The notes under the pieces: model-generated | Told to the model about the DNA's origin: nothing | The model's database searches: none | The model's input: the letters and a program-made list of their open reading frames with translations, nothing else | Made by a program: the position numbers and the translations under genes | Shown: positions 1,101 through 53,900 of the stretch, one piece after another | How positions within the stretch are numbered: position 1 is the stretch's first letter | Layout: every line of letters begins with the position of its first letter | Source: Bacteroidota bacterium | Lineage (GTDB): Bacteria > Bacteroidota > Bacteroidia > Bacteroidales > VadinHA17 | DNA: 64,000 nt | Assembly (NCBI GenBank): GCA_030618105.1 | Contig: JAUXED010000001.1 | Coordinates: 16,120-80,119, forward strand | Direction of reading: 5' to 3'

Positions 1101-1168
1101 GTTTTTATGTGCTTCATTAAAAAAATGTCTATAATATCTTATTTCATTATACTTTGCATTTTTTAGTC

Positions 1169-1226: not shown

Positions 1227-1372
1227 ATCTTCAGTCCCCGAAAAACAGAGCTGCTTTTTGACTACCATTACAGTATTAATGATATTAATTTGAAGTTGGA
1301 TGAGCTTATTTTGAGATTTATTATTGATGGATTGACCAAAAACAAATCCAATGCATATCACCGGCACACATT

Positions 1373-2080
1373 TCAACTTTCAACTTTTCTCCTCTTGCGT
1401 TGCTTCAGCACCACTTCGGCATATTCGATATCAGCAAGGGTAGTTAATTTTATATTGAGTACATCACCCGCAACAATGTTAATTTTTTCACCACTTGCTT
1501 CAAACACGGTTGCATCATCAGTAAAATCCGGTTTATACTCCTGCATATATGCTTTCTTTATCAATGCAAGGGAAAACACCTGTGGGGTTTGCACCAGGTA
1601 AATATTTTTCCTGTCAAGAGGCTTGTTCCCTCCGGCAACAGTTATTCTTACTGATTCATTTGGGGAAATTGCCGGCAGAGCGTTTCCGTATTTCCTGGCA
1701 CTGTCAAAACATCTTGAAATAGTATCTACATTCACCAATGGCCTTACTGCATCGTGTATGGCAACCAGCCCGTCATTATTGTCAATTGCCTCCAGACCAT
1801 TTTTTACAGAATCAAATCTTGTTTCCCCGCCCTTAATAACTTTGTGAGGAACAGAACACGAGTATTCTTTACAAATAGAGTTCCACAGATCAAAATAATC
1901 TGCATGAAGAACAATTATGATTTTTAATTCCCTGTCAAATTCATGAAAAACATAAAGAGTGTGTAATAATACCGGCTGGTTTGCCAGTTTAATAAATTGC
2001 TTCGGCAAATCTGATTCCATCCGTTTGCCCGATCCTCCGGCAACGATAACAGTAAATCTGTTTGTTCTGCCTTGTTGCAT
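1373..2080 (-). CDS. ispD: 2-C-methyl-D-erythritol 4-phosphate cytidylyltransferase
   Basis: 235 aa. Has the N-terminal VIVAGGSGKRM...LPKQF nucleotide-binding motif and IspD-typical length and layout. Confidence 0.9.
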   Translation of the reverse strand: MQQGRTNRFTVIVAGGSGKRMESDLPKQFIKLANQPVLLHTLYVFHEFDRELKIIIVLHADYFDLWNSICKEYSCSVPHKVIKGGETRFDSVKNGLEAIDNNDGLVAIHDAVRPLVNVDTISRCFDSARKYGNALPAISPNESVRITVAGGNKPLDRKNIYLVQTPQVFSLALIKKAYMQEYKPDFTDDATVFEASGEKINIVAGDVLNIKLTTLADIEYAEVVLKQRKRRKVES

Positions 2081-2163
2081 GTTTAGATAATATTATTATG
2101 TTAAATTGAACGGGGATTTATATTATTATGTCAAAGTTTTGTTTTTAATTAGCGAAGGCTTAA

Positions 2164-2171
2164 TATTTTTG
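2164..2171 (+). promoter_or_regulatory. Candidate Bacteroidota -7 box TATTTTTG (orphan; no annotated + strand gene downstream)
   Basis: Matches TAnnTTTG. A TTTG lies ~23 bp upstream. Confidence 0.25.
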
Positions 2172-2514
2172 TTGTTTTTTATATTAATCGCAATAAAGAT
2201 AATTACAGGTATTAACTATTGATTGTTAATATTATTGTTACTATTAAGTGCCTTAAATTTAGAATGTCTTCTTATTTCCCTCTCTCTTCGTTTGTTGCGC
2301 CGGACACAATGCTTGTAGTTTTATTTAAACCCGATAGTTCCGGCGCTTTTGCTATACTTACCTGTACCTCTCTGGGATAATTGCTTTTTTATACAAATAT
2401 GGCCTTATAATATTAACCATCACGCTGTTATATTCTTTTGAAGACACCGGATAATAACCACTCTCAGAGTGGTTCTACAAGAATCGTTCTACATCGCCAC
2501 CGGTATAGTTCTTT

Positions 2515-2742
2515 ATTCTTTTCCCCTTACTCCATACTTTTTTTCTCCTCTTCTCACCTTCTCACTTTCTCATCTTCTCTTCCTTCTTCCCTTCCGCCTT
2601 CCTACTACCTACTATTTACTATTTACTTCTTACTTCATCTTCTCATCTTCTCATCTTCTCATCTTCTCCTATTCTCTTCTTCGCCCCCTCGTCCCCTCGT
2701 CCCCTCGTTCTTTCGTCCCCTCGTTTCTTCTCCCCTTCTCTT
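2515..2742 (-). repeat. ~230-bp strand-pure polypyrimidine (+) / polypurine (-) block made of at least 5 concatenated 7-8 bp word repeats
   Basis: Blocks include CTCACYTT, CTTCC runs, (TACTWYY)n, (ATCTTCTC)x4 and (CCCCTCGT)n. It starts 3 bp after the stop of the 131-aa ORF on the minus strand. Confidence 0.9.
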
Positions 2743-2744
2743 GT

Positions 2745-3140
2745 TTATATCACTAAATGGATCTGGTAAAATTTAGACAATAAAAATATTATTATTATAA
2801 GATTAATTCCGGAAAAGAAATAATTAAATATAACCCTGTTGTTTTTAAAATTTCGTCGCAATAGTATCCCTATATTGGGTGCGAAAAGAGATAAAATCGT
2901 AAATACATAATTAAACTCATCGATTTTTTCTTTAATTTCAATCTCTAAAAACACCAGATAATAAAAGAATGATAATGCAATTAACAGGTAAGCCAGGTAG
3001 CTGAATTTTAGCATATATGTCGAATTCCTGCGCTTTTTATTTACTCTGAAGGGGCGTAAAAATACTGCCGCCAGCATAAAAATCATAGAAAACCCCGTAA
3101 TAACAAGTATGCGGGAAAGAATTTGTCCAAATTGATTCAT
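2745..3140 (-). CDS. Hypothetical small multi-pass membrane protein
   Basis: 131-aa ORF with about 4 hydrophobic segments. It is co-directional with, and 31 bp downstream of, the ROK kinase gene. I recognise no family. Confidence 0.4.
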   Translation of the reverse strand: MNQFGQILSRILVITGFSMIFMLAAVFLRPFRVNKKRRNSTYMLKFSYLAYLLIALSFFYYLVFLEIEIKEKIDEFNYVFTILSLFAPNIGILLRRNFKNNRVIFNYFFSGINLIIIIFLLSKFYQIHLVI

Positions 3141-3171
3141 TTTTCAGATGATTCAAAGACGAAAAAACTTT

Positions 3172-5317: not shown

Positions 5318-5396
5318 TTCCCCTTTATTCCCTCTATTCCCTCTATTCCCTTTATTCCACTATTCCACTATTCCCTGCCCGTCCGGTCAGGCGGGC
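5318..5396 (-). repeat. (ATTCCCTYT)/(ATTCCACT) tandem words plus the GC-rich 24-mer (reverse orientation)
   Basis: Direct reading. Overlaps the 3' end of the PIG-L ORF. Confidence 0.85.
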
Positions 5397-12364: not shown

Positions 12365-14209
12365 TTATTCGGTTTCCAAATCCCAGTTGATTTCCAAATC
12401 CCAGTTAGCTCTGACATCCAATTCTTTTTTGAAAAAAATCACTTTTTCAGGTTGTCTTTTCTCCTCATAGTTTCCTGTATCCCATTTCCCGTTTTTATTC
12501 CTGTCATAAATTGCTTTTAGCCTGTATTTTCCCGGGTGTAAAAAAGAAAATTCAACCCGGTTATTTTTCCAGCCGGTTTTTTCCTTACTTACTTCGCCCT
12601 TATTATCAAACAATTGAATAATCAGGCTATCCGGTATTTCTTTTAAAGTTACAATGATTTTACCATAGTAATCCAGTTTACGCATTCTGAAATCCAGCAG
12701 AAGGGTATCGTTACTGTAACCATATATGCCGGTAAAAGCCCCGGGTTCAAAAAACAATTGGTATTTGGCAGCTTCCTGCCATTTTGTACTAAATCTGAAC
12801 TTCCGGATTTGCAGGGAATCTTTTTCCAGGATATACCCGGTATTGATTTTTAATGAATCCTCAAAAAGAAACAGTTTGATTTTTGAGGTATCTATCATCT
12901 TTACCGGTGTTTCTGTCTCAATAACAATTTTCTGATTTAATTCAACTTGAGCGTTTTTTCTTATCGACGGAGTTAGTACAAGTGTTTTCTCTGTTTTGTC
13001 AGCAATCTCTCCGTTGCCTCTTTTTTTTCCGGTAGGAGCTATGTATCTTAATAAAGAGGTGTCGGTAAACGAAATATAGTTCCCTGTAGAATCTTCTTTC
13101 ATGTATTCCAACTTAAGGGTTACTAAATCAGAGCCGGACACAATAGTATCTGTAATCCAAATATTTACAGTGTCTCCAATAACGAATTTCTCCTTGATAA
13201 ACCATTCGCTTTTTGTATCAATATCTATCGGTGTTATCTCAAGTTTTCTCTCTTTTAATGGCATATTAAAAACCAGTTGTATATATTCCCTGGTTTCTCG
13301 TGTCGAATTTTTAAGGTATTGAATTGAATGGTCTTCCATAAAAAGAAATAACCGGGCATCCGGTTTTATTTCTTCTTTGTCAATTTCTGCTATATCGGCG
13401 CCTATTATATCAGCATTTGTTGTATCAGCATCTGTCGTGTCTGTATCTATTGTGTTTATATCTATTGTGTCAGCACCTATTGTATCTTTTCTCATAGTAT
13501 CCGCAAAAAATTCAGGGGGGGCGCTAACTAACAGGGTTGAATCCAGAAATGCAAATGCCTCGCCAGCCTGGTCAAAATAATGATTGCGATTGCCGTCTTT
13601 TATTGCAAATATCCTGAATGTATCTGCCTTAACATTATTTATCCTGAATTTTCCTTCTTTGTCCGGTTTTCCAATATACAAAGGAGGGGTTGTTTGTGGA
13701 ATGGTATCATCCAAAAGATCATATAATAACACCTCCACCCCTTCTTCTTCCGGCTCAAGATCAAACGCCCTTAGTACAATGCCATTTACTGATAATGAAT
13801 CCAGCCGGTTTCCTGTAGAAAAAACAAACTCGTAATCTTCAATCGGATTTCCCTCATTGTTATCTATTATGGCATCATAAAAAGAAAAAGTATAAGTTGT
13901 ATTTTTCTTTAGTTCCTGTTTACCCAGCTCAATAATAATACTCTTTCCCCTGACAAATATTTCAGGTTTTTCATCAAGCGGTGGTGAAATAACCAGTTTT
14001 TGTTGCAGATTATCAAAACGTACAAATTCATTAACCTCTATTTCTATTTTGTCTGATCCAAAATTCTTTGAATAATTATTCGGAGTGCTCTCAATTATTT
14101 CAGGTGGCAAAATATCTTTTTTGCCTCCGACCGGCGATCCGACTCGTGCACAATTTATTGTACTTAAAAGAATAATTGAGATTAATATCAGGAAAACCGG
14201 TTTGTTCAC
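12365..14209 (-). CDS. Ig-like (SbsA/Big_5-type) domain lipoprotein
   Basis: Signal plus lipobox (LLSTINC). The N-terminal PPEIIESTPNN...IEIEVNEFV resembles Big_5 domains. Lies 26 bp upstream of the M16 gene on the same strand. Confidence 0.6.
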   Translation of the reverse strand: MNKPVFLILISIILLSTINCARVGSPVGGKKDILPPEIIESTPNNYSKNFGSDKIEIEVNEFVRFDNLQQKLVISPPLDEKPEIFVRGKSIIIELGKQELKKNTTYTFSFYDAIIDNNEGNPIEDYEFVFSTGNRLDSLSVNGIVLRAFDLEPEEEGVEVLLYDLLDDTIPQTTPPLYIGKPDKEGKFRINNVKADTFRIFAIKDGNRNHYFDQAGEAFAFLDSTLLVSAPPEFFADTMRKDTIGADTIDINTIDTDTTDADTTNADIIGADIAEIDKEEIKPDARLFLFMEDHSIQYLKNSTRETREYIQLVFNMPLKERKLEITPIDIDTKSEWFIKEKFVIGDTVNIWITDTIVSGSDLVTLKLEYMKEDSTGNYISFTDTSLLRYIAPTGKKRGNGEIADKTEKTLVLTPSIRKNAQVELNQKIVIETETPVKMIDTSKIKLFLFEDSLKINTGYILEKDSLQIRKFRFSTKWQEAAKYQLFFEPGAFTGIYGYSNDTLLLDFRMRKLDYYGKIIVTLKEIPDSLIIQLFDNKGEVSKEKTGWKNNRVEFSFLHPGKYRLKAIYDRNKNGKWDTGNYEEKRQPEKVIFFKKELDVRANWDLEINWDLETE

Positions 14210-16621: not shown

Positions 16622-17911
16622 ATGAAAATAGGTGTTATTATTGGTAGAATTGGTGGGGTTGACGGGGTAGCACTTGAAGCAGAAAAATGGATCCAGGTAT
16701 TAAAAAAAATGGGGCATGAAATTTTTATTCTTTCCGGTCAGTTTCAGGATTGGAAAATTGATCGCACACACGACACCCTGGTTCCCGAAATGTCATTCTT
16801 TTCGCCTGAAAGTTTCTGGGGGCAAAAAAAGGCTTTTTTTCATCCCGACACCAATACTGCAGATTTGATTGAACATGTTTCACTTTACTCCAGAATTATC
16901 TCCGAAAAAATTATCAAGTGGGCAATCCATAATAAAATTGATGTTCTTATCTCCGAAAACGCTTCTGCACTTCCCTCCCATCTTGAAATGGGTATAGGAA
17001 TTAAACTGGCTGTTGAAACCCTGGGTCTTCCTACTATTACACATGATCATGATTTTGCATGGGAAAGAGGTGACAGATATATTTCTCCACATAAAGAAAT
17101 TAATAAGTTCGTTGAAAATGCATTTCCCTTGAGGCTTCCTAACACATACAATGCTGTTATTAATTTAAATGCGCAAAAAACCCTTAAAGAGAAATATAAC
17201 AGAAGTTCTATTGTTGTTCCTAATGTAATGAACTTTAATGTTCCGTTCGGAAAAATAACCTCAAAAAATAAAAATTTGCGAGCCGATCTGGGCCTTGAAG
17301 AAGATGATTTTTTGCTTTTTCAGATAACACGTATTGTTGAGAGAAAAGGAATTGAAGTTGCTATTAACCTTATTGACAAACTTGATAATAAAAAAATAAA
17401 GCTTGTTATTACCGGAAATTATAAAGATGATGAGGGTAGTATATACTATGATATGCTTGTCAACCTGATCCATGAATTGAAAATAAGCAGACAAATTATT
17501 TTTGCTTCTCATATTATACACAATAAGGGTCTTTCAGGAGACGGAAGTGATACACGCTATTCACTATCCGATGCTTACGCAAATGCATCTGCTTGTACAT
17601 ATTTCAGTACTTATGAGGGTTTTGGTAATGCTTTTATTGAAGCTGTTCTGGCAAAACGTCCTATTTTTGTTAATAATTACAAGCCCGTATACTGGCCTGA
17701 TATCGGCAGTAAGGGATTTAAAGCAGTAATGCTTGAAGATAATGTACTTACCGATGATGCTGTTGAACAAATGAGAGAGGTAATATTTAATAAAACACTA
17801 AACCGCGAAATTGCTGAATTTAATTATACTCTCGGAAAAAAGCACTTTTCTTACGAGACACTTGAACAAAAATTGGAGGAGTTGCTTGAAGAAGTAAGTA
17901 GTAAAAAGTAA
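16622..17911 (+). CDS. GT4-like retaining glycosyltransferase (GT-B fold)
   Basis: 429 aa with an E-x7-E motif (YEGFGNAFIEA). The N-terminal GGVDGVALEAEKW and HDHDFAWERG motifs are shared with the N-terminal half of the 1405-aa protein. Confidence 0.8.
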   Translation: MKIGVIIGRIGGVDGVALEAEKWIQVLKKMGHEIFILSGQFQDWKIDRTHDTLVPEMSFFSPESFWGQKKAFFHPDTNTADLIEHVSLYSRIISEKIIKWAIHNKIDVLISENASALPSHLEMGIGIKLAVETLGLPTITHDHDFAWERGDRYISPHKEINKFVENAFPLRLPNTYNAVINLNAQKTLKEKYNRSSIVVPNVMNFNVPFGKITSKNKNLRADLGLEEDDFLLFQITRIVERKGIEVAINLIDKLDNKKIKLVITGNYKDDEGSIYYDMLVNLIHELKISRQIIFASHIIHNKGLSGDGSDTRYSLSDAYANASACTYFSTYEGFGNAFIEAVLAKRPIFVNNYKPVYWPDIGSKGFKAVMLEDNVLTDDAVEQMREVIFNKTLNREIAEFNYTLGKKHFSYETLEQKLEELLEEVSSKK

Positions 17912-17973
17912 GTAGTAGGAAGGAAGAGGTGATGAGGTGATGAGGTGATGAGGTGATGAGGTGATGAGGTGAT
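17888..17973 (+). repeat. (GTARRNA)n heptamers followed by (GGTGATGA)x6 octamers, overlapping the GT gene stop
   Basis: Direct reading. Lies between the convergent GT and hemW genes. Confidence 0.9.
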
Positions 17974-19140: not shown

Positions 19141-19188
19141 TATTATTCCATTATTCCCCTTTATCCCCTTTATCCCCTTTATCCCCTC
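19141..19188 (-). repeat. (CCCCTTTAT)x3 9-bp repeat encoding the GDKGDKGDKGE tail of the 1405-aa ORF
   Basis: Direct reading. Confidence 0.85.
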
Positions 19189-22100
19189 TACTCCGTTCTT
19201 CCAGTACAGCCAACACTGCATTCGATACAGCTCTTGGTTCCGGCGACATTGAATAAACATTTTTTTCATACTGACTATTATACGGAGAAATATTCAGCGG
19301 TATTCCATCAACTACAATTGTACTACTTCCCCCGGGGTCAAACCCCATTGCTTTTTCTATTCCCTGGTTAATTAAGATTTCAGCCATATCAAGGTGTGTA
19401 GCCCCAACTGATTCCCTTATTCTTCCGTTAACCGCAAGAATATACATATTTCCATTCTTATCCAATCCGGCAGCAATTTTTGGTCCTCTCATATCTGTAT
19501 AGTCTATTCTTGCTGCTTGTGTCTTTATTGAGTTTTCCGTTTTCCATCCTTCTTTTTGCATATCTAAACATGGCTTGTTTCTTTCTACCAACATAGGTCC
19601 GGCTTCGATACCATGTATATATTTTTCCAGTCCTTTTATTTTTATGCTTAATTTTCCTTCTTTTTCTTTCATTACTTCGGGAACTGATCCTGCCGGAAAC
19701 GAAAGCGTAATTCCCACCGGTATTATTTCAACCCTTTCTCCTTTTTTAGTGCTGATAATCTCTTTAATTGTATTTCCGGCAATTCTTATAATAGTACGAC
19801 CATTTCCTATAATATGTTTTTTAACAAAATTCAGATCATAATAACATGCTTTATCACCAGGTACGGATAAATTATATTGCTTTTCTGTAAAGTCGATTTT
19901 CTCTTCACCTTTAATAATTTCTATTCCCTTTGAACAGTTTACTCTTTGCATATAAAGTGTTCCGTCTTGTTTAACCAGAAATGCGGCTTTATTGAATAGT
20001 GGAAGACTTTTCACTTTCCCTTTTTCAATTAAAAGACCCATTGGCGAGCCAATGTAGGATTCCGGCAAACCAAGTTTTCCAACTAGTTCAGGATTTAAAA
20101 TATATCCTCCATTCCATCCTGCCTGCACTTTTTTCTTTTCTCTTTTTTCAAATTCTTTAATAAAATCTGTCACTTTTTTCGGTTGACTTTTAGTAAGAAC
20201 CGTAATAAACGACCATTTCTTTCCCTGTAAATTTGTTGCGATTCTTACCATCACACCATTCCATGGATGTCCGTCATTATAAACACCTGTTAGATATGAA
20301 TAATTAACCGGCTGTAAGACATCCTGTTTTTTACTTTTTAATTTATTCAAAACAAACTTCACCGGCGATCCGTTTTGTTCTGCATCATTTTTCAGTTCCT
20401 TAAGCACTTTTTCCTTTCCTTTTTCCTTGCATAAATTCTTAAACAAGTTTCCTTTTAGCTCTTCGCTAAAATCTTTTGCTGTTTGAATTGGTGTTGGATA
20501 TGCAAGAGTGGGGCGCATTCCCGCAGGCACAAATTGTATATACCCTGTTCCTTTTGGTATACCCATAATGTTTGCAGTTGTATCCTCTCTAACTCTTCCT
20601 ATATGAAATCGGTCAATATCAAGAATATCAGTCATTACTATCGCGTTCTTACGATTAGAAATTAAAAACCCCTTACCATTTTTTATTTGCCCAAGAATTT
20701 TTAATGCCTTTTCTCCCAACTGGGAGAAATGAATACCCACACATAATTGTTTTGTTCTTACAATCTGTAAAATTTTCTTTTCGTAAAGCAGTTTTAGTTC
20801 TCTGTCACCACTATTTTTAATATATTTTATTATCTCGTTAGCGTCAGCCCATTGTCTTATTGATTTTTCCTGTGCAAAAAGAAAAACCGGCTCAATTTCT
20901 GCTTCACGTCCATTGAGTTTTTCTTTTGTAAGTTCTTCTTCAATTTTTAAGTTAAGCCTTGATCTTACAGATTGGAGCGCAAAGAATTCCAGTTCATACA
21001 TGATATGTTTTCCGGAAAAAATTCCAATAGGTACATTTGCATGCATTCTATCCAGAAGCTCTTCCCTGTCGTCTATTGCAAGATGTTTGCTTGATGTAAG
21101 CTGTGAAAGAGCCAGGTTCCAGTCGGTAAAAAAATGAGAGCCTGTATCAACGCGGTAGGTTGTTGTTGGCCGTATAATTTCATGGTAAATAAGATTTATC
21201 AGTCCTGTTATTTCCTGAATTGTAAAATCCCTGTATGGATAATGGTATTTGTTCCTGTGCCGGTATGACATTGAGTGGTCATGTCTTATTTTTATTTCAC
21301 CTTCGCGATAGCGAAAAATATTATCAACCGTGTTATAAAATTTTACTATTTTTTCTTCTGCAATAAATACGTGGTCCGGATCATCATTAACCAGGTCTTT
21401 TGCAAACATAAAGGCCATACCCCTAACTTCCTGTTCCTCAACTCTGAAATAGCTGGGATCAATAAGTGATTTCAGTTTAAGCATAAATAACAATCTTCCA
21501 TATCCCGGTAAATAATGCCTTTTTTCTGTTTTAATAATTTCTTCTAATCCTTCATTATTATTATTTATCAAATCCCGGTATTTATTGAAGCTGTCTTTTG
21601 CCTTTTCCATGCACAGGACATTTGTTTCCAACTGATTATATAACCTGAAGTTAATCTCTCTAATATTTTGGTAAAGAGTTTCCAGACTGTATCTTTTATC
21701 AACCGCATTTATGTTCTGTTCGTATTCATCACTAAAATTGTGTGGAAAAAAGACTCTTTCAAAAATGTTATTAACATGTTCCTTATTAATATTCTTCCCG
21801 TCAAATTCGATTACTTTTAGTCTGTCTTCCTCGGGCAGATTCTCTCCTATTACATCTGAATAAACATTTTCGGGATAATACCTGCTGCAAAATATTGGAA
21901 CACCACATGCTGCTGCCTCAATAATAGGTAAACCCCTCCCCTCGGTTTCGCTTGGGAGAAGCACAAGTGATGCAACATTATATAATTCCGGTATCCCCAC
22001 GGGGTTTTTAAACCGTTTCAGAAATTTTTCTTTATCCAGTTCACTAAATAAAAATGCCAGGTAAATTTTCTCCTTCAGGTCTTTATCAATTGATCTTAGT

Positions 22101-23368
22101 AATTCTGAAAATTTCTTTAATATTTTGTTAAAATAGCTAAACTGACCATTTGCTATAGGTCCGGTTACCAGCAAAGTAATTTTAAGATGTTCGGTTTCTC
22201 TGAATTTCTCAATTATTTCTTTATTCAAAAGCATTTTATTGATCAGGCGAAACCCGGTTTCAATCCTTTTCCTGGCTATAATCCGTGTGGGCTGCAGAAA
22301 AATAATGTTCTCGGCCAGGAAATTTGCTTTCGCATTTGTTTTGTTTCCAATAAGTATTGGTCTGGGATTACTTTTAATAACCAGCCTGTTTTCAATAACA
22401 TCTTTTACCGAATAACCTATCAGTGTATTTTCATACCTGCTTAATATTTTTTCAAACTGGTAATAAGTATTGATCTTTATTCTCTTGCTGGGATTTTTAT
22501 ATTCTTCCGTATCAATTGCTGTTCCTATCAAATCTATATTTGCCGGATTATGCCCGTTTTTTTCAATAAGGTGATCGCTTTGTCTTTGGTTAATATTGAC
22601 GGAAAGCCATGATCTTGATTCCCAAGGGAATAATATTTCAATAATGCTAAAAAACTCACCAATATGTGAATTAGTGAAGAAAAAATCTCTTGGTCCTTTT
22701 TCCAGACCCTTTTCTCTGATATCTATTTCTCTATTACCTCCCTCCCAATAAAAATCATGATTATTGCAGATTACCGGTATCCCCATAATTTCCGATACCA
22801 GTACGTTTGCCAATGCAAATGATACATTTCCCGGGTTTGAACATATATTAACAATGAATAGTAATTTAATGTTCCTTCTTTCTATGTATTTTCCCAGTTT
22901 TTCGGAAATTACAAGTACTTCATTCCAAAATTTCAGGATAAGGTTGTTATACACCCTGCTTCCTCTTTCCAATTTAGTATGGAAAAAATCATTGTACAAT
23001 GGCCAGCTATCAAAGCTTTTCGCTTCCTTTATTACAAATATTCTGGTTTCAGGATCTATAATTTTTTTTGCTTCCGGCTTAAACCCACCACCAATATAAT
23101 GTATTGGTATACCAGCCATATTTTTCCTGTATAGTTTTGCATATTTTTCAATTTCAATAGTCACACCATCAATTGAATAACCAAATGTCACAAACCCAAT
23201 TCCTTCTTCTTTTAATTCATTCCTGAAATCCTTAAAACTATTGTTGTATTCAATTGTTGGAACTGGATTATTTTCTTTCAATTCATCTAGAAACAAACCC
23301 AGGTCAAACCAGGTTTTTATTTTTTCCCGGTTTAAGAACTTCATCATTTCTGTAGCTGTCTTTTTCAT
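19151..23368 (-). CDS. 1405-aa multidomain protein: GT4-like glycosyltransferase + unassigned central region + C-terminal phosphodiester glycosidase (NAGPA/DUF2233-like) domain
   Basis: The N-terminal half has IDGVTIEIEKY, NNHDFYWEGG and ETEGRGLPIIEAAACG (E-x7-E). The C-terminal ~300 aa has NGGY...SPMGLLIEKG...AAGLDKNGNMYILAVNGR...GFDPGGSSTIVVDG. The tail GDKGDKGDKGE is encoded by a 9-bp repeat. Confidence 0.8.
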   Translation of the reverse strand: MKKTATEMMKFLNREKIKTWFDLGLFLDELKENNPVPTIEYNNSFKDFRNELKEEGIGFVTFGYSIDGVTIEIEKYAKLYRKNMAGIPIHYIGGGFKPEAKKIIDPETRIFVIKEAKSFDSWPLYNDFFHTKLERGSRVYNNLILKFWNEVLVISEKLGKYIERRNIKLLFIVNICSNPGNVSFALANVLVSEIMGIPVICNNHDFYWEGGNREIDIREKGLEKGPRDFFFTNSHIGEFFSIIEILFPWESRSWLSVNINQRQSDHLIEKNGHNPANIDLIGTAIDTEEYKNPSKRIKINTYYQFEKILSRYENTLIGYSVKDVIENRLVIKSNPRPILIGNKTNAKANFLAENIIFLQPTRIIARKRIETGFRLINKMLLNKEIIEKFRETEHLKITLLVTGPIANGQFSYFNKILKKFSELLRSIDKDLKEKIYLAFLFSELDKEKFLKRFKNPVGIPELYNVASLVLLPSETEGRGLPIIEAAACGVPIFCSRYYPENVYSDVIGENLPEEDRLKVIEFDGKNINKEHVNNIFERVFFPHNFSDEYEQNINAVDKRYSLETLYQNIREINFRLYNQLETNVLCMEKAKDSFNKYRDLINNNNEGLEEIIKTEKRHYLPGYGRLLFMLKLKSLIDPSYFRVEEQEVRGMAFMFAKDLVNDDPDHVFIAEEKIVKFYNTVDNIFRYREGEIKIRHDHSMSYRHRNKYHYPYRDFTIQEITGLINLIYHEIIRPTTTYRVDTGSHFFTDWNLALSQLTSSKHLAIDDREELLDRMHANVPIGIFSGKHIMYELEFFALQSVRSRLNLKIEEELTKEKLNGREAEIEPVFLFAQEKSIRQWADANEIIKYIKNSGDRELKLLYEKKILQIVRTKQLCVGIHFSQLGEKALKILGQIKNGKGFLISNRKNAIVMTDILDIDRFHIGRVREDTTANIMGIPKGTGYIQFVPAGMRPTLAYPTPIQTAKDFSEELKGNLFKNLCKEKGKEKVLKELKNDAEQNGSPVKFVLNKLKSKKQDVLQPVNYSYLTGVYNDGHPWNGVMVRIATNLQGKKWSFITVLTKSQPKKVTDFIKEFEKREKKKVQAGWNGGYILNPELVGKLGLPESYIGSPMGLLIEKGKVKSLPLFNKAAFLVKQDGTLYMQRVNCSKGIEIIKGEEKIDFTEKQYNLSVPGDKACYYDLNFVKKHIIGNGRTIIRIAGNTIKEIISTKKGERVEIIPVGITLSFPAGSVPEVMKEKEGKLSIKIKGLEKYIHGIEAGPMLVERNKPCLDMQKEGWKTENSIKTQAARIDYTDMRGPKIAAGLDKNGNMYILAVNGRIRESVGATHLDMAEILINQGIEKAMGFDPGGSSTIVVDGIPLNISPYNSQYEKNVYSMSPEPRAVSNAVLAVLEERSRGDKGDKGDKGE

Positions 23369-24508: not shown

Positions 24509-24551
24509 TTTAAATAATTATTAATTTTTAAAATTTATTTTTCCTGCTTTA

Positions 24552-34480: not shown

Positions 34481-34514
34481 AAAAAATATTAGTCTTTAAT
34501 AATAAAAGAAACGA

Positions 34515-40321: not shown

Positions 40322-42193
40322 ATGAAAGAATATGATGTAATTGTTATTGGAGGGGGACATGCGGGTTGTGAAGCAGCAGCATCAGCAGCAAATATGGGTT
40401 CTGAGGTGTTGCTGATTACAATGGATATGACAAAAATTGCAGAAATGTCATGCAATCCGGCTATGGGAGGGATTGCAAAAGGACAAATAATTAGGGAGAT
40501 AGATGCTTTGGGAGGGTATAGTGGAATAGTTACTGATGAAAGCATGATACAGTTCCGAATGCTTAACAGGTCGAAAGGTCCGGCAATGTGGAGCCCAAGG
40601 GCACAAAACGACAGAATGAAATTTACGAAAATTTGGAGGGAGAAACTTGAAGGAATTGAAAACCTGGATTTTTGGCAGGATACTGTAGAAATAATTATGA
40701 TAAAAAATAACAAGGTTGTTGGTGTAAAGACAAATATGGGAAGGGCAATAAAAGGGCAAAGTGTTATTATTACAAGCGGGACGTTTATGAATGGAATTAT
40801 GTATGTTGGAAAAGTGAGAAATAAGGGAGGAAGAGCCTCAGAACCTGCATCATATGGATTGTCAAAGCAATTAATGAATATTGGTTTTGAGGTTGGAAGA
40901 ATGAAAACAGGAACACCGGCAAGAATTGATGGAAGAACGATAAATTTTAAAAAATTAAAGGAGCAAAAAGGAGATGGAGAAGGGAAATGTTTTTCATTTA
41001 TGAATGATAAAGTTGTTATAGGAAATGAAAAAAGCTGCTTTATTACATATACAAACAAGGAAGTTCATAATATTCTTAATAGAGGTCTTATGGATTCGCC
41101 TTTATATGATGGTTCGATAAAAAGTATTGGACCAAGGTATTGTCCGAGTATAGAAGGAAAAATAGTAACATTTGCGGGGAAAGATATGCATCAGTTATTC
41201 CTTGAACCGGAAGGAGAAAATACTGTAGAATATTATATTAACGGGTTTTCGTCCAGTTTATCAGTGGAAATACAATATGAAGCAATGAAAAAAATCGAAG
41301 GACTGGAAAAAGTAAAAATATTCAGACCGGGCTATGCAATAGAATATGATTACTTTCCACCAACACAAATAAAACATACACTGGAGACGAAAAGAATAGA
41401 GAACCTCTATTTTGCCGGACAGGTAAATGGAACAACGGGATATGAAGAGGCTGGTGCACAGGGTTTAATGGCAGGAATAAATGCTCATTTAAAGTTAAAT
41501 AACAAAGAAGAAATAATTCTTAAACGTAACGAAGCTTATATAGGAGTACTTATTGACGACCTTATTACAAAGGGAGTTGATGAACCATACAGAATGTTTA
41601 CATCAAGAGCAGAGTACAGAATTTTGTTAAGACAAGATAATGCTGATAAAAGACTTACAGGTATAGGATATAAAATTGGGTTGGCATCTGAAGAAAGAAT
41701 GGAAAAAGTAAGGAAAAAGTATAAAGAAAGAGATGAAGTAATTAAATGGATTAAAAAGGAATCAATAAGACCGGAAGAAATAAACAAGATATTAGAAAAG
41801 CACGGAACAAGAAAAATTAAGCAAAGCAGAAAACTGGATCAAATATTATTAAGACCGGAAATTAAAATTAATGACCTGGAAAAGGGATTAGAAAAAGTTA
41901 AAAAGAGATTTGGTGAAATAGGTGTAATGAAAGAGGAGATATTAGAATCAGCAGAAATTGAGATTAAATATGAAGGTTACATTGAAAGAGAAGACAAAAT
42001 TGCAAAAAAGATACAACGGCTGGAAAATATAAAATTGAAAGGAGAAATTAATTATAATGAAATGTTATCAATATCGACAGAGGGCAGGCAAAAACTTTCA
42101 AAAATCAGACCGGAGACAATTGGACAAGCATCAAGAATAAGTGGTGTATCTCCTTCGGATATTAATGTATTGCTCGTATTTATGGGAAGGTGA
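40322..42193 (+). CDS. mnmG: tRNA uridine-5-carboxymethylaminomethyl synthesis enzyme MnmG (GidA)
   Basis: YDVIVIGGGHAGCEAA FAD motif, 623 aa, GidA-associated C-terminal domain. Confidence 0.95.
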   Translation: MKEYDVIVIGGGHAGCEAAASAANMGSEVLLITMDMTKIAEMSCNPAMGGIAKGQIIREIDALGGYSGIVTDESMIQFRMLNRSKGPAMWSPRAQNDRMKFTKIWREKLEGIENLDFWQDTVEIIMIKNNKVVGVKTNMGRAIKGQSVIITSGTFMNGIMYVGKVRNKGGRASEPASYGLSKQLMNIGFEVGRMKTGTPARIDGRTINFKKLKEQKGDGEGKCFSFMNDKVVIGNEKSCFITYTNKEVHNILNRGLMDSPLYDGSIKSIGPRYCPSIEGKIVTFAGKDMHQLFLEPEGENTVEYYINGFSSSLSVEIQYEAMKKIEGLEKVKIFRPGYAIEYDYFPPTQIKHTLETKRIENLYFAGQVNGTTGYEEAGAQGLMAGINAHLKLNNKEEIILKRNEAYIGVLIDDLITKGVDEPYRMFTSRAEYRILLRQDNADKRLTGIGYKIGLASEERMEKVRKKYKERDEVIKWIKKESIRPEEINKILEKHGTRKIKQSRKLDQILLRPEIKINDLEKGLEKVKKRFGEIGVMKEEILESAEIEIKYEGYIEREDKIAKKIQRLENIKLKGEINYNEMLSISTEGRQKLSKIRPETIGQASRISGVSPSDINVLLVFMGR

Positions 42194-42230
42194 AGAAGTA
42201 AGAAGTAAGAAGTAAGTAGTATGTAGTAAG
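42191..42230 (+). repeat. (GTAAGAA/GTAAGTA)n heptamers starting at the mnmG stop codon
   Basis: Direct reading. Confidence 0.9.
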
Positions 42231-42269
42231 ATGTCACGTGAGAAGGCGATAAGGCAAAGGCTTTCTATT

Positions 42270-42382: not shown

Positions 42383-44020
42383 ATGAAAGAAAAAAAATAT
42401 TTATTATTTGGGAAATTAGTTGATCCGGTAAACAGAACGATACTGAATGCTGGTATTTCTGTGGAAAACGGGAAAATAGCAAAAATAGAGTCTGTTAAAG
42501 AGCAAAGCGGAAAATATATTCTGCCTGGTTTTGTTGATGCTCATGTGCATATTGAAAGCTCAATGCTTACTCCGGGTGAGTTTGCCCGACTGGCGGTCAG
42601 ACACGGAACAGTTGCAACAGTGTCAGATCCACACGAAATAGCAAATGTGTGCGGGAAAGAGGGATTGAGATTCATGATTGAGGATGGAAAAACGGTGCCG
42701 TTGAAATTTCATTTTGGGGTACCGTCATGTGTTCCGGCTACAGATTTTGAAACATCAGGTGCAACTCTGAATGCTGAAATTGTTGGTGAGCTGTTAAAAA
42801 GCGATGATTATTTTTTCCTGGCCGAGATGATGAACTTCCCGGGGGTAATAGATAATGATACGGAGGTTTGGGGAAAGATAAGAACTGCAATAAAGTTAAA
42901 CAAACCCATTGATGGGCATGCGCCGGGAGTTACAGGTGAAAGATTAAAAAAATATGCTGGTGCAAACATCTCTACTGATCACGAATGTTCAACTATTGAT
43001 GAAGCTATTGAAAAAATTGAGAATGGAATTAAAATACAGATAAGGGAAGGTAGTGCAGCAAAAAACTTTAATGCTCTCTGTTCTTTAATAAAAAAGTATC
43101 CTGAAAAGGTTATGTTATGTACTGATGATTGCCATCCTGACGATCTGGTAAAAGGACATATTAACCTGCTTATTAAAAGAGGTCTTGAAAAGGGGATTGA
43201 CCTGTTTGACCTGCTGACAGCTGCTTGTGTTAACCCGGTTAAACATTACAATCTGAATATAGGATTACTGCAGACTGGAGATCCTGCTGACTTTATCATT
43301 GTAGATAATCTGAATGATTTCAATATCCTTGAAACATATATTAACGGAAAAAAAGTATATGATAACGCAAAAATTTTATTTGAATATAAAACAGATAAGC
43401 AGGTTAATAATTTCAAAAGGAAGGAAATATTGAAAAATGATCTGCTGGTAAAAGATAAAGGAAAGAATATAAGGGTTATTAAGTGTTTTGACGGACAATT
43501 ATTTACTAACTCAATAGTGGTAAAACCAAATACCAGGAGCGGGCATGTAATTCCGGATGTTGAAAATGATATATTGAAACTTGTTGTTGTAAACCGTTAC
43601 AATAATTCCGAACTTGCAATTGGATTTATTCATGGCATTGGATTTAAAGATGGTGCTGTGGCTCAAAGCATTGCTCACGACAGTCATAATATTATTGCTG
43701 TAGGAGCAAATGATAAAGATTTGCTAAAAGCGATAAATACAGTAATTTCTTTAAAAGGTGGTATTGCAATTAGTGAAAATGGAAATATTCATCAATTACC
43801 TCTGGAAATTGCCGGATTAATGTCTTCTGAAAGCGGAGAAAAAACAGCTTTAAGGTATGCTGAACTAAACGAATTAGCAAAATCCCTGGGATCTTCATTC
43901 AAATCACCCTTAATGACACTCTCGTTTATGGCTCTTTTAGTTATTCCTGAACTAAAACTGAGCGATAAAGGTCTTTTTGATGTTAACGCTTTTTCACCGG
44001 TATCATTGTTTGTTGAATAA
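42383..44020 (+). CDS. ade: Adenine deaminase
   Basis: PGFVDAHVHIESSM metal-binding motif, 545 aa, amidohydrolase plus Adenine_deam_C layout. Confidence 0.9.
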   Translation: MKEKKYLLFGKLVDPVNRTILNAGISVENGKIAKIESVKEQSGKYILPGFVDAHVHIESSMLTPGEFARLAVRHGTVATVSDPHEIANVCGKEGLRFMIEDGKTVPLKFHFGVPSCVPATDFETSGATLNAEIVGELLKSDDYFFLAEMMNFPGVIDNDTEVWGKIRTAIKLNKPIDGHAPGVTGERLKKYAGANISTDHECSTIDEAIEKIENGIKIQIREGSAAKNFNALCSLIKKYPEKVMLCTDDCHPDDLVKGHINLLIKRGLEKGIDLFDLLTAACVNPVKHYNLNIGLLQTGDPADFIIVDNLNDFNILETYINGKKVYDNAKILFEYKTDKQVNNFKRKEILKNDLLVKDKGKNIRVIKCFDGQLFTNSIVVKPNTRSGHVIPDVENDILKLVVVNRYNNSELAIGFIHGIGFKDGAVAQSIAHDSHNIIAVGANDKDLLKAINTVISLKGGIAISENGNIHQLPLEIAGLMSSESGEKTALRYAELNELAKSLGSSFKSPLMTLSFMALLVIPELKLSDKGLFDVNAFSPVSLFVE

Positions 44021-50406: not shown

Positions 50407-50856
50407 ATGGCTATAGTACGTGTTACAAAGGAATTCCGTTTTGAAATGGCTCATGCCTTGTGGAATTATGACGGACCATGCAGAAATATTCACGGGCATT
50501 CATACAAATTGCTGGTAACCGTAAAGGGCGAGCCGTTAAATGACCCTGGTAAACCCAAGCATGGAATGATAATTGACTTTGGTGACCTGAAAAAGATTGT
50601 AAAAAGCATAATTATAAACAGGTTTGATCATACAGTTGTTGTTAATAAACAAGCACCATATGAAATGTTACAGAAAATGGGGCAAATGTTTGAAAAATAT
50701 GAGGTAATGGATTTCCAGCCAACCTGTGAGAAACTTGTTATATATTTTGCTGATAAAATTAAAGAGAAATTACCTGAAAGCGCACAACTTCAGCGACTTA
50801 GATTGTATGAAACGACAACATCATTTGCAGAATGGTACGAGGAGGATAATAAATAA
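50407..50856 (+). CDS. queD: 6-carboxy-5,6,7,8-tetrahydropterin synthase
   Basis: 149 aa. F.F.MAH, NIHGHSY, DH..VV motifs of the PTPS/QueD family. Confidence 0.9.
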   Translation: MAIVRVTKEFRFEMAHALWNYDGPCRNIHGHSYKLLVTVKGEPLNDPGKPKHGMIIDFGDLKKIVKSIIINRFDHTVVVNKQAPYEMLQKMGQMFEKYEVMDFQPTCEKLVIYFADKIKEKLPESAQLQRLRLYETTTSFAEWYEEDNK

Positions 50857-50857
50857 A

Positions 50858-50955
50858 GGCAGAAGGCAGAAGGCAAAAGAGAAGAAAGAAGAAGTAAGAA
50901 GTAGGGAGTAAGGAGACAGCCTCATCACCTCATTTCCCCATTACCTCATCACCTT
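50858..50955 (+). repeat. (GGCAGAA)n + (GTARGRA)n heptamers followed by inverted-orientation TCATCACC words, between queD and polA
   Basis: Direct reading. Confidence 0.85.
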
Positions 50956-50995: not shown

Positions 50996-53776
50996 ATGAC
51001 TGGTAATAAAAAGCTTTTTCTTCTTGATGCTTATGCATTGATATACAGAGCATATTATGCATTTATCCATAATCCTGTAATAACATCAAAAGGATTAAAT
51101 ACTTCTGCAATTTATGGATTTGTTAATACATTAAATGATATAATTAAAAACCAGACACCATCACATATCGCAGTGGTTTTTGATCCTCCTTCTCCTACAT
51201 TCAGACACAAAATGTATAATGAATACAAAGCCAACAGGGAAGCGACTCCTGAAGATATTAAGAAATCGGTTCCGTATATAAAAAAAGTAATTTCAGCTTA
51301 TAATATACCGATTCTGGAAGTGGAAGGATATGAAGCAGATGACACTATCGGAACGATTGCAAAAAAAGCAGAAAGTAAGGGTTTTAAGGTTTATATGATG
51401 ACTCCGGATAAGGATTTTGCACAGCTTGTGTCTGAAAATATTTTTATTTATAAACCTGGAAGAGGCGGAGATAAAGCTGTTATTTGGGATAAGGAAAAAG
51501 TCAGAGAGAAATTTATGGTAGAGAGCCCGGAACAGGTAATTGAAGTGCTTGCTCTTTGGGGTGATGCTTCAGATAATATACCCGGAGCCCCGGGGATAGG
51601 AGAAAAAACGTCAAAAAAGCTTATATCAAAATATGGCTCAATAGATGAGATATTCAAAAATATTGAACACTTTAAAGGAAAGCAAAAAGAGAACCTGATT
51701 GAATACAGGGAACAGATTGAATTATCCAGGAAGTTGGTTGAAATCCCATTGGATGTTCCGGTTGATTTCGATGAGGAAGCAATGAAATCCAAAGATCCGG
51801 ACAAGGAAAAACTCCAGGAAATATTTCAGGAACTGGAATTCAAAAGTTTCCTTTTCCGGTTGAATAATGGGATTGAAATACCGGCAAAAAAAGAAGAAAT
51901 AGCAGCACAGGGATCATTGTTTTCCGGACCTGATACAGGAATAGAGAAAACAGGTAATCTCAGGAAAAACATTAAGTCAACCCCGCATAATTATATTTTG
52001 GTTGATACATCCGAAAAACAAGATGCGCTTATAAGCAAACTAAATAAACAAAACCGGTTTTGTTTTGATACTGAAACAACAGGATTGGATACTGTTAAAG
52101 ATGAACTGGTTGGTATTTCTTTTTGTTGTGAAAGTCATGAAGCATATTGGCTCCCTGTGGAAAGCGATAAAAAGATATCTGAAAAAGTACTTGAGAAATT
52201 CAAACCGGTATTTGAAAACGAAAAGATTGAAAAAATAGGTCAGAACCTGAAATTTGATATAAAGGTTTTACGGAAAAGGGGAATTGTTGTGAAGGGTGTT
52301 TTATTTGATACAATGATTGCACATTATCTTATTAAACCCGAAGGAAGACACGGACTGAACGATCTGGCAGAGGACTATCTGAATTATACTCCTGTTAAAA
52401 TTGAAGAATTGATAGGGGTAAAAGGGAAAAATCAGGCGAATATGCGATTAGTACCACAGGAAAAAATTAAGGAATATGCAGCGGAAGATGCAGATCTGAC
52501 ATGGCAGATAAAAGAAATTCTTGAAAAGGAACTTAAAGAAAAAAACCTTGAAACACTTGCCGGAAAAATTGAAATGCCACTGATATATGTATTATGTGAC
52601 ATGGAAATGGAAGGATTTAAAGTAAATGTTGATGTGTTGAAAAAATACTCAGTAATATTAAAAACTGAATTGCTGGATATTCAGACCAGGATCTATAAAC
52701 TTGCTGATACGGAATTCAATATTTCCTCTCCGAAACAACTGGGCGAAATATTGTTTAATAAAATGAAAATTGATTCCAAAGCAAAAAGAACAAAAACAGG
52801 ACAATATTCTACAAGCGAGGATGTACTTCAAAGACTAACCGATAAACATGAAATAGTTTCCAAAGTATTAGAATTCAGGTCAGTTAGCAAATTGCTTTCC
52901 ACTTATGTTGAAAAACTTCCGGAGTTAAAAAATAGTGAAACCGGGAAAATTCATTCTTCTTTCAACCAAACAATTACAGCTACGGGACGCTTGAGTTCCA
53001 ATAACCCGAATTTACAGAATATCCCGATAAGGGAAGACAGAGGCAGGGAGATAAGGAAAGCATTTATCCCCTCGGATGTACAACATATTCTGATCTCGGC
53101 TGATTATTCACAGATAGAGTTAAGATTAATGGCACATATGAGTGGCGATAAAAATATGATTGAGGCTTTTAATGCAGGTGAAGATATTCATGTCTCTACA
53201 GCAGCAAAAATATATAGAATTTCACAAGGGGATGTTACAAAAGAAATACGCGGAAGAGCAAAAACCGCTAATTTTGGTATCATATATGGAATTTCTGCTT
53301 TTGGACTAAGCCGGAGGATGAATTTGTCTCTGTCTGATGCTAAGGAATTTATAGAGGAGTATTTTAAAACTTATCCGGGGGTTAAAAAATATATGGACGA
53401 GAGCATAAAAGGAGCAAGGGAAAAGGGATATGTGCAAACCATTATGGGCAGAAAAAGATATCTTCCTGATATACTATCACGTAATTCTGTTGTAAGGGGA
53501 TTTGCAGAGAGAAATGCAATAAATGCACCTATTCAGGGATCTGCAGCTGATATTATCAAAATAGCAATGATCAATATTCACAACAGGATAGAGGAAAAAC
53601 AATTGAAATCCGGAATGATATTACAGGTTCATGACGAACTGGTTTTTGATGTCCCGGAAAAAGAAATTGATGTACTTAGTGATATTGTGGTTAATGAAAT
53701 GCAGAATGCTGTAAAGCTGGATGTGCCTCTTACAGTTGAATGGGGTACAGGAAGAAACTGGCTTGAAGCACACTGA
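50996..53776 (+). CDS. polA: DNA polymerase I
   Basis: 926 aa: 5'-nuclease, 3'-5' exo-like and family A polymerase domains (DYSQIELR, RRxAKxxNFGxxYG, QVHDELVF). Confidence 0.95.
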   Translation: MTGNKKLFLLDAYALIYRAYYAFIHNPVITSKGLNTSAIYGFVNTLNDIIKNQTPSHIAVVFDPPSPTFRHKMYNEYKANREATPEDIKKSVPYIKKVISAYNIPILEVEGYEADDTIGTIAKKAESKGFKVYMMTPDKDFAQLVSENIFIYKPGRGGDKAVIWDKEKVREKFMVESPEQVIEVLALWGDASDNIPGAPGIGEKTSKKLISKYGSIDEIFKNIEHFKGKQKENLIEYREQIELSRKLVEIPLDVPVDFDEEAMKSKDPDKEKLQEIFQELEFKSFLFRLNNGIEIPAKKEEIAAQGSLFSGPDTGIEKTGNLRKNIKSTPHNYILVDTSEKQDALISKLNKQNRFCFDTETTGLDTVKDELVGISFCCESHEAYWLPVESDKKISEKVLEKFKPVFENEKIEKIGQNLKFDIKVLRKRGIVVKGVLFDTMIAHYLIKPEGRHGLNDLAEDYLNYTPVKIEELIGVKGKNQANMRLVPQEKIKEYAAEDADLTWQIKEILEKELKEKNLETLAGKIEMPLIYVLCDMEMEGFKVNVDVLKKYSVILKTELLDIQTRIYKLADTEFNISSPKQLGEILFNKMKIDSKAKRTKTGQYSTSEDVLQRLTDKHEIVSKVLEFRSVSKLLSTYVEKLPELKNSETGKIHSSFNQTITATGRLSSNNPNLQNIPIREDRGREIRKAFIPSDVQHILISADYSQIELRLMAHMSGDKNMIEAFNAGEDIHVSTAAKIYRISQGDVTKEIRGRAKTANFGIIYGISAFGLSRRMNLSLSDAKEFIEEYFKTYPGVKKYMDESIKGAREKGYVQTIMGRKRYLPDILSRNSVVRGFAERNAINAPIQGSAADIIKIAMINIHNRIEEKQLKSGMILQVHDELVFDVPEKEIDVLSDIVVNEMQNAVKLDVPLTVEWGTGRNWLEAH

Positions 53777-53900
53777 TGAAGAAGTAGGAAGTAAGAAGTA
53801 AGTAGTAAATAGGAAGAAAGAGGTGATGAGGTGATGAAGAGAAGAGGTGATGAGGTGATGAAGAGAAGAGGTGATGAGGTGATGAGGTGATGTGGTGTGA
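53774..53900 (+). repeat. (GTARRNA)n heptamers + (GGTGATGA)n/AAGAGAAGA 24-bp superrepeat starting at the polA stop
   Basis: Direct reading. Confidence 0.9.

Follow-up and report, generated by a model that had tools for sequence, protein, structure and literature searches.

A length-variable compound tandem repeat directly downstream of a stop codon in an uncultured Bacteroidales genome

A stretch of 64,000 nt from an uncultured member of the Bacteroidales (VadinHA17; contig JAUXED010000001.1), termed the window throughout, contains a compound repeat tract at 2515..2742 (minus strand), referred to as the block, which was delimited by its composition and by Tandem Repeats Finder (TRF). It is located directly after a gene cluster devoted to sugars. 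The last gene of this cluster (2745..3140, minus strand, taken from the list of open reading frames (ORFs)) codes for a predicted membrane protein of 131 aa. This protein has no Pfam match and is conserved in the three relatives L003, L004 and L005 (see below). Past this gene are genes for ROK kinases, SIS, PIG-L deacetylase, PFK and CBM9 proteins, all encoded on the minus strand. The 131-aa gene ends in TAA at 2745-2747, which leaves a gap of 2 nt to the block. An earlier interpretation made without database searches (the sequence-only reading) had correctly placed the block right after the stop codon, with a gap of 3 bp instead of the measured 2 nt. The next gene downstream is ispD (1373..2080, minus strand), coding for 2-C-methyl-D-erythritol 4-phosphate cytidylyltransferase, at a distance of 434 nt from the block. 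A terminator scan found none between the stop codon of the 131-aa gene and the block. With a gap of 2 nt and no intervening terminator, RNA made from the 131-aa gene has to run on into the block, where it is rich in purines.

The plus strand of 2515-2742 consists of 107 T, 94 C, 20 A and 7 G, which corresponds to 88.2% pyrimidine. Frames of 228 nt taken over the whole window average 48.6% (standard deviation 9.4%), and of all of them the block represents the maximum, in agreement with the near-pure C/T character originally attributed to it. On the sense (minus) strand, the block has 47% A, 41% G, 9% T and 3% C. TRF reported periods of 7, 8, 12 and 16 nt, with copy numbers of 3.8-6.0 and 80-90% matches. 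At least five arrays with units of 7-8 nt abut head to tail. The five arrays named by the sequence-only reading were all recovered by TRF. In plus-strand wording, these are CTTCTCAC (3.8 copies, 2550-2579), a CTTCC-rich 12-mer (two copies, 2573-2602), TACTACT (4.6 copies, 2603-2634), TCATCTTC (6.0 copies, four of them perfect, 2635-2682) and TCGTCCCC (5.5 copies, alternatively 3.7 copies of a 16-mer, 2679-2736).

On the minus strand, the array nearest to the stop codon is made of the octamers GAGGGGAC, GAAAGAAC and GAGGGGGC, with a super-period of 16 nt (2679..2736), and contains the G-cluster run GGGGACGAGGGGACGAGGGGG (2684-2704). It is followed by an array of the octamer GAGAAGAT with four perfect copies and two variants, GAGAATAG and GAAGAAGA (2635..2682), and by the heptamer module GAAGTAAGAAGTAAATAGTAAATAGTAGGTAGTAGGAAGG (2597..2636). 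A GGAAG-rich run (GGAAGGCGGAAGGGAAGAAGGAAGA, 2573..2602) forms the transition from heptamers back to octamers, represented by GAGAAGAT, GAGAAAGT, GAGAAGGT and GAGAAGAG (2550..2579). The heptamer module of the window is thus positioned inside an octamer array. The GGAAG transition recurs at 17918-17926 and 53811-53819.

The block and the region between it and ispD (2081-2514) are overlapped by short plus-strand ORFs of 53-112 aa (2219..2380, 2438..2776 and 2469..2756). The region downstream of the block had been described as ORF-free over ~430 bp. This holds for the distance to ispD and insofar as no gene in it is supported, but not for these short ORFs. Two of them (2438..2776 and 2469..2756, 95-112 aa) span the block, which might then code for a low-complexity protein on the plus strand. 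However, Pfam returned no match for the 112-aa ORF, and a reading frame would not survive units of 7-8 nt and allele lengths that differ (see below) by 8, 91 and 218 nt. Between fixed anchors at the block ends, most length differences are not multiples of 3. Given the missing Pfam match and the frame-breaking allele lengths, the region is best read as non-coding.

For comparison of the orthologous locus, relatives were collected as uncultured Bacteroidales metagenome-assembled genomes that code for the ROK protein adjoining the block. Additional contigs were obtained through exact matches to the 131-aa protein and to IspD. All of these are metagenome assemblies, and their loci are designated by L numbers. 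The amino acid sequence identity of the neighbouring ROK protein to that of the window is 91% for L005, 93% for L004 and 97% for L003. In L005 and L004, the block is absent, as is the segment of ~200 nt that follows it in the window. The distance from the stop codon to the conserved region upstream of ispD (2081..2232, minus strand; ...ATATTAACAAT..ATAGTTAATACC...) is only a few bases in L005, where this region nearly adjoins the stop of the 131-aa gene, and ~45 nt in L004. In L003, the ~200-nt segment is present and the purine tract is just ~100 nt long. As judged from sequence, this comparison shows the block to be an insertion relative to an ancestral state in which hardly anything separated the stop codon from the conserved ispD upstream region.

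Among strains with an identical flanking protein, at least five alleles were found, ranging from about 100 to 228 nt. The expansion and contraction in relatives that the sequence-only reading had predicted is thus borne out. Between the anchors, the length is 340 nt in the window, 249 nt in L085 and 130 nt in L083 (identical 131-aa protein), and 122 nt in L003. Within the GAGGGGAC and GAGAAGAT arrays, one allele is set apart from another by whole units (8 or 16 nt). There are one, two or three copies of GAGGGGAC, the 16-mer GAAAGAAC-GAGGGGAC is present or absent, and GAGAAGAT has one to four copies, with a single one in the short alleles. The heptamer module (40 nt) is missing in the short alleles L003 and L083, and an insert of 74 nt, bounded by AAAAGAATA repeats, is also present or absent. 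L085 resembles the window allele minus 91 nt. The sequence-only reading had named absence of the block, or an entirely different sequence in near-identical strains, together with a lack of phenotype and of any structural or transcriptional signal, as counting against its proposal. With respect to sequence, this is largely what was observed, as the block is absent at 91-93% identity and very different in near-identical strains.

Four short-read contigs (L001, L002, L086 and L087) terminate within the block. Its stop-distal ~90 nt (2515-2600) are present solely in the assembly of the window, as might be expected if the block were an assembly artefact. Against this, the 116-170 nt proximal to the stop codon are reproduced exactly in three independent assemblies (L001, L002 and L085). 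The alleles L003, L086 and L087 carry point substitutions as well, so that not every allele can be explained by assembly collapse. That the block is an artefact, or codes for the low-complexity protein considered above, is hardly tenable.

The block is not singular. It had been called the clearest example of stacked words; the stacking is real, but the block is one of many tracts in the window. A total of 39 short-period arrays was found, which corresponds to 0.61 per kb and is the highest value obtained, with 0-0.5 per kb in 80 related loci. In these, the arrays of other lineages use different words. For a placement test, gene ends were curated, and each block of arrays was randomised within its own intergenic space in 200,000 simulations. 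Of 21 intergenic array blocks, 11 are at most 6 nt from a stop codon or overlap it, compared to 3.6 expected, and none of the simulations reached 11. At start codons, one was observed and 1.1 were expected. The 11 stop-abutting tracts have a sense strand with 3.5% C, 40% G, 40% A and 17% T, while coding sense strands have 14% C and 20% G. Six of the 11 tracts are devoid of C on the sense strand. Other lineages (L003-L082) have 16 stop-abutting arrays made of unrelated words; G exceeds C in 15 of these and C exceeds G in none (p=6e-5). A first automated classification of arrays over all loci gave weak biases only and was discarded, as spurious ORFs through the arrays had mis-assigned several blocks.

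Four sister tracts are located on the plus strand. The tract at 17889..17973 overlaps the stop codon of the gene 16622..17911 and consists of 5.6 copies of AAGAAGT/AAGTAGT, then GGAAGGAA, then six copies of GAGGTGAT. The tract at 53779..53897 starts 2 nt past the stop of the gene 50996..53776 and consists of 4.3 copies of AAGAAGT, then GGAAGAAA, then 9.8 copies of GAGGTGAT. A tract with 5.6 copies of AAGAAGT (42193..42231) starts on the final base of the TGA (42191-42193) of the gene 40322..42193, and one with AAGGCAG, AAGAAG and AAGAAGT (50856..50912) starts at the stop of the gene 50407..50856. On the minus strand, a tract made of AATAGAGGG and AATAGTGG (5321..5376) is found at the stop codon of the PIG-L gene. 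The junction between the PIG-L and SIS genes is 16-33 nt long in six relatives (including L005, 8809-8833), while it has 155 nt in the window, with the AATAGAGGG/AATAGTGG arrays. In L003 (8790-8925), it has 136 nt, and the insert differs from that of the window. The short form is the ancestral one, so that this operon junction has been expanded in the window and in L003 and repeats the history of the block.

Several observations were made at these gene ends. The ORFs 16622..17911 and 19151..23368 read into repeat tracts, and their last 6-12 codons are repeat-encoded (e.g., a terminal EEVSSKK before the stop). The tracts may thus have taken the place of the C-termini and stop codons that these genes originally had. 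A TGA followed by AGAAGT ends two genes (42191 and 53777). The sequence TGAAGAAGT also occurs at 17887, where it is out of frame with the gene 16622..17911, which reads to the TAA at 17909-17911. A GC-rich palindrome, CGCCCGCCTGACCGGACGGGCAGGG, occurs three times at gene ends in this genome of 35% GC (1186-1210, 5372-5396 in inverted orientation, and 34979-35003), and also at 44180-44210. It resembles repetitive extragenic palindromic elements or terminators that lack the U tract. The copy at 5372 is immediately next to a repeat tract.

The heptamer module GAAGTAAGAAGTAAATAGTAAATAGTAGGTAGTAGGAAGG has counterparts with 88-96% identity in the tracts at 17889, 42195, 50886 and 53788. All four of these are found after a stop codon and have the same orientation as the block. 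When one mismatch is allowed, AAGAAGTAAGWAGT has 11 matches at five loci of the window, compared to 0.13 expected from shuffles, while the exact pattern is not found in 207 other loci. The BLAST significance of the shared module is inflated by the common periodicity and was not relied on. Instead, sharing was judged by an irregular junction (GTAGTAGGAAGG, then the GAGNNGAT array) and by the word count relative to shuffles. The block and the tracts at 17889 and 53779 have a common order, with a heptamer array followed by GGAAG and then by an octamer array of GAGNNGAT.

A metagenome scan with a single word, (GAGGTGAT)3, detected at least 120 stretches; enrichment cannot be judged from one word. 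Among the matches listed, (GAGGTGAT)n arrays are found in contigs with 30-72% GC and are often stacked with the one-base variants GAGGTGGT, GAAGTGAT and GGGGTGAT (L088-L167). Frequently, these listed arrays also have (ATCACCNC)n arrays of the complementary word shortly downstream, with which they make up potential long imperfect hairpins. L138 (37% GC) repeats an order seen in the window, with AGTTGAGT followed by AAGGAAGA and GAGGTGAT. A gene-context classification was attempted for 80 of the metagenome (GAGGTGAT)3 loci. It proved unreliable, because the reverse strand of GAGGTGAT is devoid of stop codons and generates false long ORFs in high-GC contigs. The scan was thus used for breadth only. 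GAGGTGAT, the most frequent word, has a GAGGTG core, which is the complement of CACCUC in the anti-Shine-Dalgarno sequence of 16S rRNA. This core and the occurrence of the arrays in contigs with 30-72% GC, among the matches listed, leave room for a ribosome-related role of GAGGTGAT.

When the whole window was searched with Rfam at the gathering threshold, no family matched the block, and a search of 1100-3200 at a permissive threshold returned chance-level matches only. The RNA of the block is predicted to be unstructured on both strands. Over the 228 nt, the minimum free energy (MFE) is -2.4 kcal/mol for the sense strand (z -0.54 relative to shuffles) and -0.5 kcal/mol for the antisense (plus) strand (z -0.52).

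The sequence-only reading had proposed that the block could adopt H-DNA (an intramolecular triplex) and stall replication or transcription. Its purine/pyrimidine asymmetry is what such structures have in common with it. Strand purity is 88% over 228 nt, and the longest pure pyrimidine runs have 23, 19 and 19 nt. H-DNA requires mirror symmetry over pure purine or pyrimidine arms of about 12-15 nt or longer, and tandem direct repeats as such do not provide it. The best mirror arm in the block has 10 nt with one mismatch, while composition-matched shuffles gave 10.6 +/- 1.6 nt and were equal or better in 80% of cases, so that the symmetry is at chance level. In addition, there are 27 purine interruptions (12%). 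A signal specific to triplexes is thus not seen, the H-DNA proposal is not specifically supported, and we consider it very improbable.

A C/U-rich Rho loading site on the antisense transcript had also been proposed. The composition of the plus-strand RNA agrees with this, as it has 41% C and 3% G, is unstructured and exceeds the 80 nt of a Rho utilization (rut) site. However, transcripts that run on from the upstream gene carry the sequence of the purine-rich minus strand. The C-rich strand is antisense to both flanking genes, and the likeness to rut sites rests on composition. A directional insulator at 3' ends could be built on this. Sense RNA would be invisible to Rho, while antisense or convergent read-through would be terminated before it enters the gene. 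The C content and the MFE of the plus-strand RNA over 228 nt (-0.5 kcal/mol) would be suited to this function, and the strand asymmetry is common to all stop-abutting tracts. Tracts are found at five of nine convergent junctions, compared to about six of 35 tandem ones. Also in favour, terminator-like sites (hairpin plus U) are not enriched in the window (23 vs. 14.6, 9 vs. 10.1 and 17 vs. 12.3). On the other hand, the block is missing in close relatives and highly variable in length, no promoter is known for plus-strand transcription at 2081-2514, and a passive tolerance filter predicts an equal asymmetry. A Rho insulator is, in our view, unlikely.

An alternative function may reside in the sense strand. 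In this case, the G-rich non-template strand right behind the stop codon, where the RNA is no longer covered by the ribosome, would promote RNA:DNA hybrids (R-loops) or G-quadruplexes (G4), which would pause or terminate the polymerase or stabilise the mRNA 3' end. By stalling forks, these structures would also drive the instability of the tract. An analogy is provided by the immunoglobulin switch regions, which have G-rich tandem repeats on the non-template strand. According to the QmRLFS-type rule, a G-cluster initiation zone has to be followed, over 100 nt or more, by a G content of 40% or higher for an R-loop to form. The block has the G-cluster run GGGGACGAGGGGACGAGGGGG at 2684-2704 (minus strand), followed by 170 nt with 36-37% G and ~1% C, an elongation zone below the usual threshold of 40% G. 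A canonical G4 with loops of up to 7 nt is not found in the block; a motif appears only when loops of up to 12 nt are allowed. The L003 allele has only three G-tracts, so that the capacity to form G4 is not conserved. Most sister tracts, among them those with AAGAAGT, GAGGTGAT and AGTTGAGT, lack runs of three or more G. In favour of this possibility, G-rich heptamers in the same position in Xanthomonas and Nostoc are transcribed and fold into G4 in vitro (PMC4692102). We give an R-loop or G4 element little credence.

It is tempting to combine both functions. The stop-abutting tracts of this Bacteroidales lineage would then be a class of orientation-specific 3'-end elements. Sense transcripts would pass or would be paused via R-loops, antisense and convergent transcripts would be terminated by Rho, and the composite module (heptamer array, GGAAG, GAGNNGAT array) would spread between gene ends by copying. 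We regard such an element class as a speculative possibility with a low chance of being correct.

Two further segments are located on the minus strand between the block and ispD. One is the strain-specific 74-nt insert (2440..2513). Its ends are imperfectly inverted, it contains the hairpin ACCACTCT-GAG-AGTGGT, and a direct repeat of 9 nt (AAAAGAATA) adjoins it on both sides (2431-2439 and 2514-2522). The insert is found in the window and in part in L085, and is absent from L083 and L003. Its appearance is that of a miniature mobile element, with a putative target-site duplication. The other is the lineage-specific segment of ~200 nt (2233..2430), which the window shares with L003, L083 and L085 and which is lacking in L004 and L005. 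It contains a GC-rich hairpin, GCGCCGGA...TCCGGCGC, with an 8-bp stem that is followed by TTTTGC on the plus strand and thus has a terminator-like look. Over 2225-2520, a stretch that includes the 74-nt insert, the predicted fold of the minus strand is more stable than that of shuffles (z -2.3). The ~200-nt segment could be a small RNA gene or an insertion remnant. It was also considered as a dispersed element, which was rejected as there is no second copy in the window.

A dispersed intergenic element of 70-207 nt, with 81-90% identity between copies, was found at 24536-24742, 36888-37094 (inverted), 49788-49860 and 34407-34483. It has a core consisting of TTTTGCGA, a hairpin and AGCAATCT, and has no Rfam match at the gathering score. 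It could represent a family of RNAs or of miniature inverted-repeat transposable elements. Arrays of reverse words (CCTCATCA and TCATCACC), with a sense strand devoid of G, are located 30-41 nt upstream of two start codons (44358-44381 and 50920-50954). An identical 14-mer, CACTGCAACACAAT, is found near both of these arrays (two occurrences, none expected), upstream of the array at 44293-44306 and just downstream of it at 50963-50976. Two perfect GTTCCACGTGGAAC palindromes (42271-42284 and 42355-42368) flank an array with five copies of TTTTAAC upstream of the gene 42383..44020, and are probably a pair of transcription factor operators. Tandem repeats with periods of 15, 12 and 11 nt at 13402-13483 and 60840-60984 are internal to the ORFs 12365..14209 and 60226..61329. 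As most of these periods are multiples of three, the repeats are probably coding and distinct from the intergenic arrays with 7-8-nt units. The coding strand is very strongly purine-loaded at 34001-42000 (GC skew 0.34-0.47, AT skew 0.21-0.33), and the skews track gene orientation over the whole window.

In unit size, position, orientation, instability and dispersal, the block fits a described kind of bacterial repeat. In heterocystous cyanobacteria, families of tandem heptamers scattered over non-coding DNA, with consensus words such as CCCCAGT, are known as short tandemly repeated repetitive sequences (STRR). The block resembles these as a case of dispersed tandem heptamers in non-coding DNA. 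It differs by phylum and by words; the TRF units of the block (CTTCTCAC, TACTACT, TCATCTTC and TCGTCCCC) include none of the STRR words, for which no dedicated search was made.

Long simple sequence repeats (LSSR) have units of 5-11 nt, with heptamers being most common, and a patchy phylogenetic distribution, and polymerase slippage has been proposed as their origin (Mrazek, Guo & Shah 2007, as summarised in PMC4679880). The block has head-to-tail units of at most 11 nt, at least three copies, and a length beyond chance. Its units, which are not multiples of 3, lie in non-coding DNA between the stop codon at 2745 and ispD, and it shows copy-number polymorphism in metagenome assemblies. Other common features are tandem units of 7-8 nt that are mostly intergenic, recurrence of a unit at several loci, patchy distribution and slippage as the proposed origin. 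Compared to the LSSR covered by that summary, the block differs in that at least five different arrays are stacked in one strand-pure tract of 228 nt, and its host is an uncultured member of the Bacteroidales.

Assemblages of heptamers (TAACTGA and others) have been described from Beggiatoaceae, cyanobacteria and five Bacteroidetes, and intergenic regions of Gramella, Aequorivita and Elizabethkingia hold several different heptamer arrays (MacGregor 2015, PMC4679880). For the Bacteroidetes arrays, close relatives with short, array-free intergenic regions and contigs ending within the repeats were reported (PMC4679880). The block has the same properties, with arrays side by side, absence in close relatives and contigs that end inside. 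However, TAACTGA arrays are mainly found just upstream of start codons, the words of the block differ, and TAACTGA arrays were not seen here.

A match in position is provided by G-rich heptamers of Xanthomonas (GGGAATC) and Nostoc (GGGGA(C/T)T), which are found 0-50 bp from stop codons on the coding strand, some of them overlapping the stop (Rehm et al. 2015, PMC4692102). Most of these are transcribed, and they were shown to fold into G4 in vitro (PMC4692102). The block likewise has its G-rich strand as the coding strand and starts 2 nt past a stop codon, its copy number is variable, and there are similar G-rich cores (GAGGGGAC, GGGGATAAA and GGGAATAGA). In contrast to the Xanthomonas and Nostoc heptamers, the block lacks the combination of at least four tracts of three or more G, short loops and a bias for four units. 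It has no four-unit preference and no canonical G4, and most of its words are purine-rich without runs of G. The tracts of the window are enriched at convergent rather than at aligned junctions, which is a further difference. What is new in the present case is the clade of the host, the set of words, how strongly the arrays are stacked and strand-pure, and the evidence for a composite module common to several gene ends.

We consider it reasonably probable that the block is a near-neutral compound tandem repeat that is driven by slippage and is tolerated directly after stop codons, and only when its G-rich, C-poor strand is the sense strand. The tract would have grown recently, in the spacer immediately downstream of the 131-aa gene with which the sugar cluster ends. 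Whole-unit changes in register are a signature of replication slippage, by which the tract would be lengthened and shortened in steps of 8 or 16 nt, as seen in the alleles. Point mutations in units and subsequent re-amplification would generate adjoining arrays with related words (GAGAAGAT, GAGAAAGT, GAGAAGGT, GAGAATAG and GAGGGGAC). The heptamer module, which is shared with other tracts, probably arrived via template switching or ectopic recombination through GAAG microhomology, and its import would explain the stacking. The statistical pattern of placement suggests that tracts persist only at sites and in an orientation where they do little harm, that is, abutting stop codons and with the G-rich, C-poor strand as sense. 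The untranslated RNA would then add no C-rich Rho loading site and no hairpins to the operon transcript. As neither sequence nor length is conserved, the tract is non-coding and its RNA is unstructured, we judge it to be close to selectively neutral.

Several observations weigh against this interpretation. Neutrality alone leaves the near-total absence of C from the sense strand (0% in six tracts) unexplained, and pure neutrality does not account for the exact abutment to stop codons. Three loci have the heptamer array, GGAAG and GAGNNGAT array in common order, and (GAGGTGAT)n arrays recur in metagenome contigs with 30-72% GC, among the matches listed. The rules of position and orientation are strong, and these four features could stem from a function or from a specific mechanism that generates the tracts. 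Repeats can collapse in metagenome assemblies, so some of the alleles could in part be assembly errors. Slippage itself is inferred from the pattern of alleles.

If a slippage-driven, near-neutral repeat is the correct description, the block is to be seen as a hypermutable repeat and not as a conserved device, and may be used as a strain marker. It also explains the breaks of short-read contigs at gene ends in this organism. With these tracts, an uncultured Bacteroidales clade joins the few bacterial groups with dispersed repeats of 7-8 nt. The rule seen in Xanthomonas and Nostoc, with repeats that follow the stop codon and have the G-rich strand as sense, holds in the 64-kb window and, with different words, in independent lineages of the clade.

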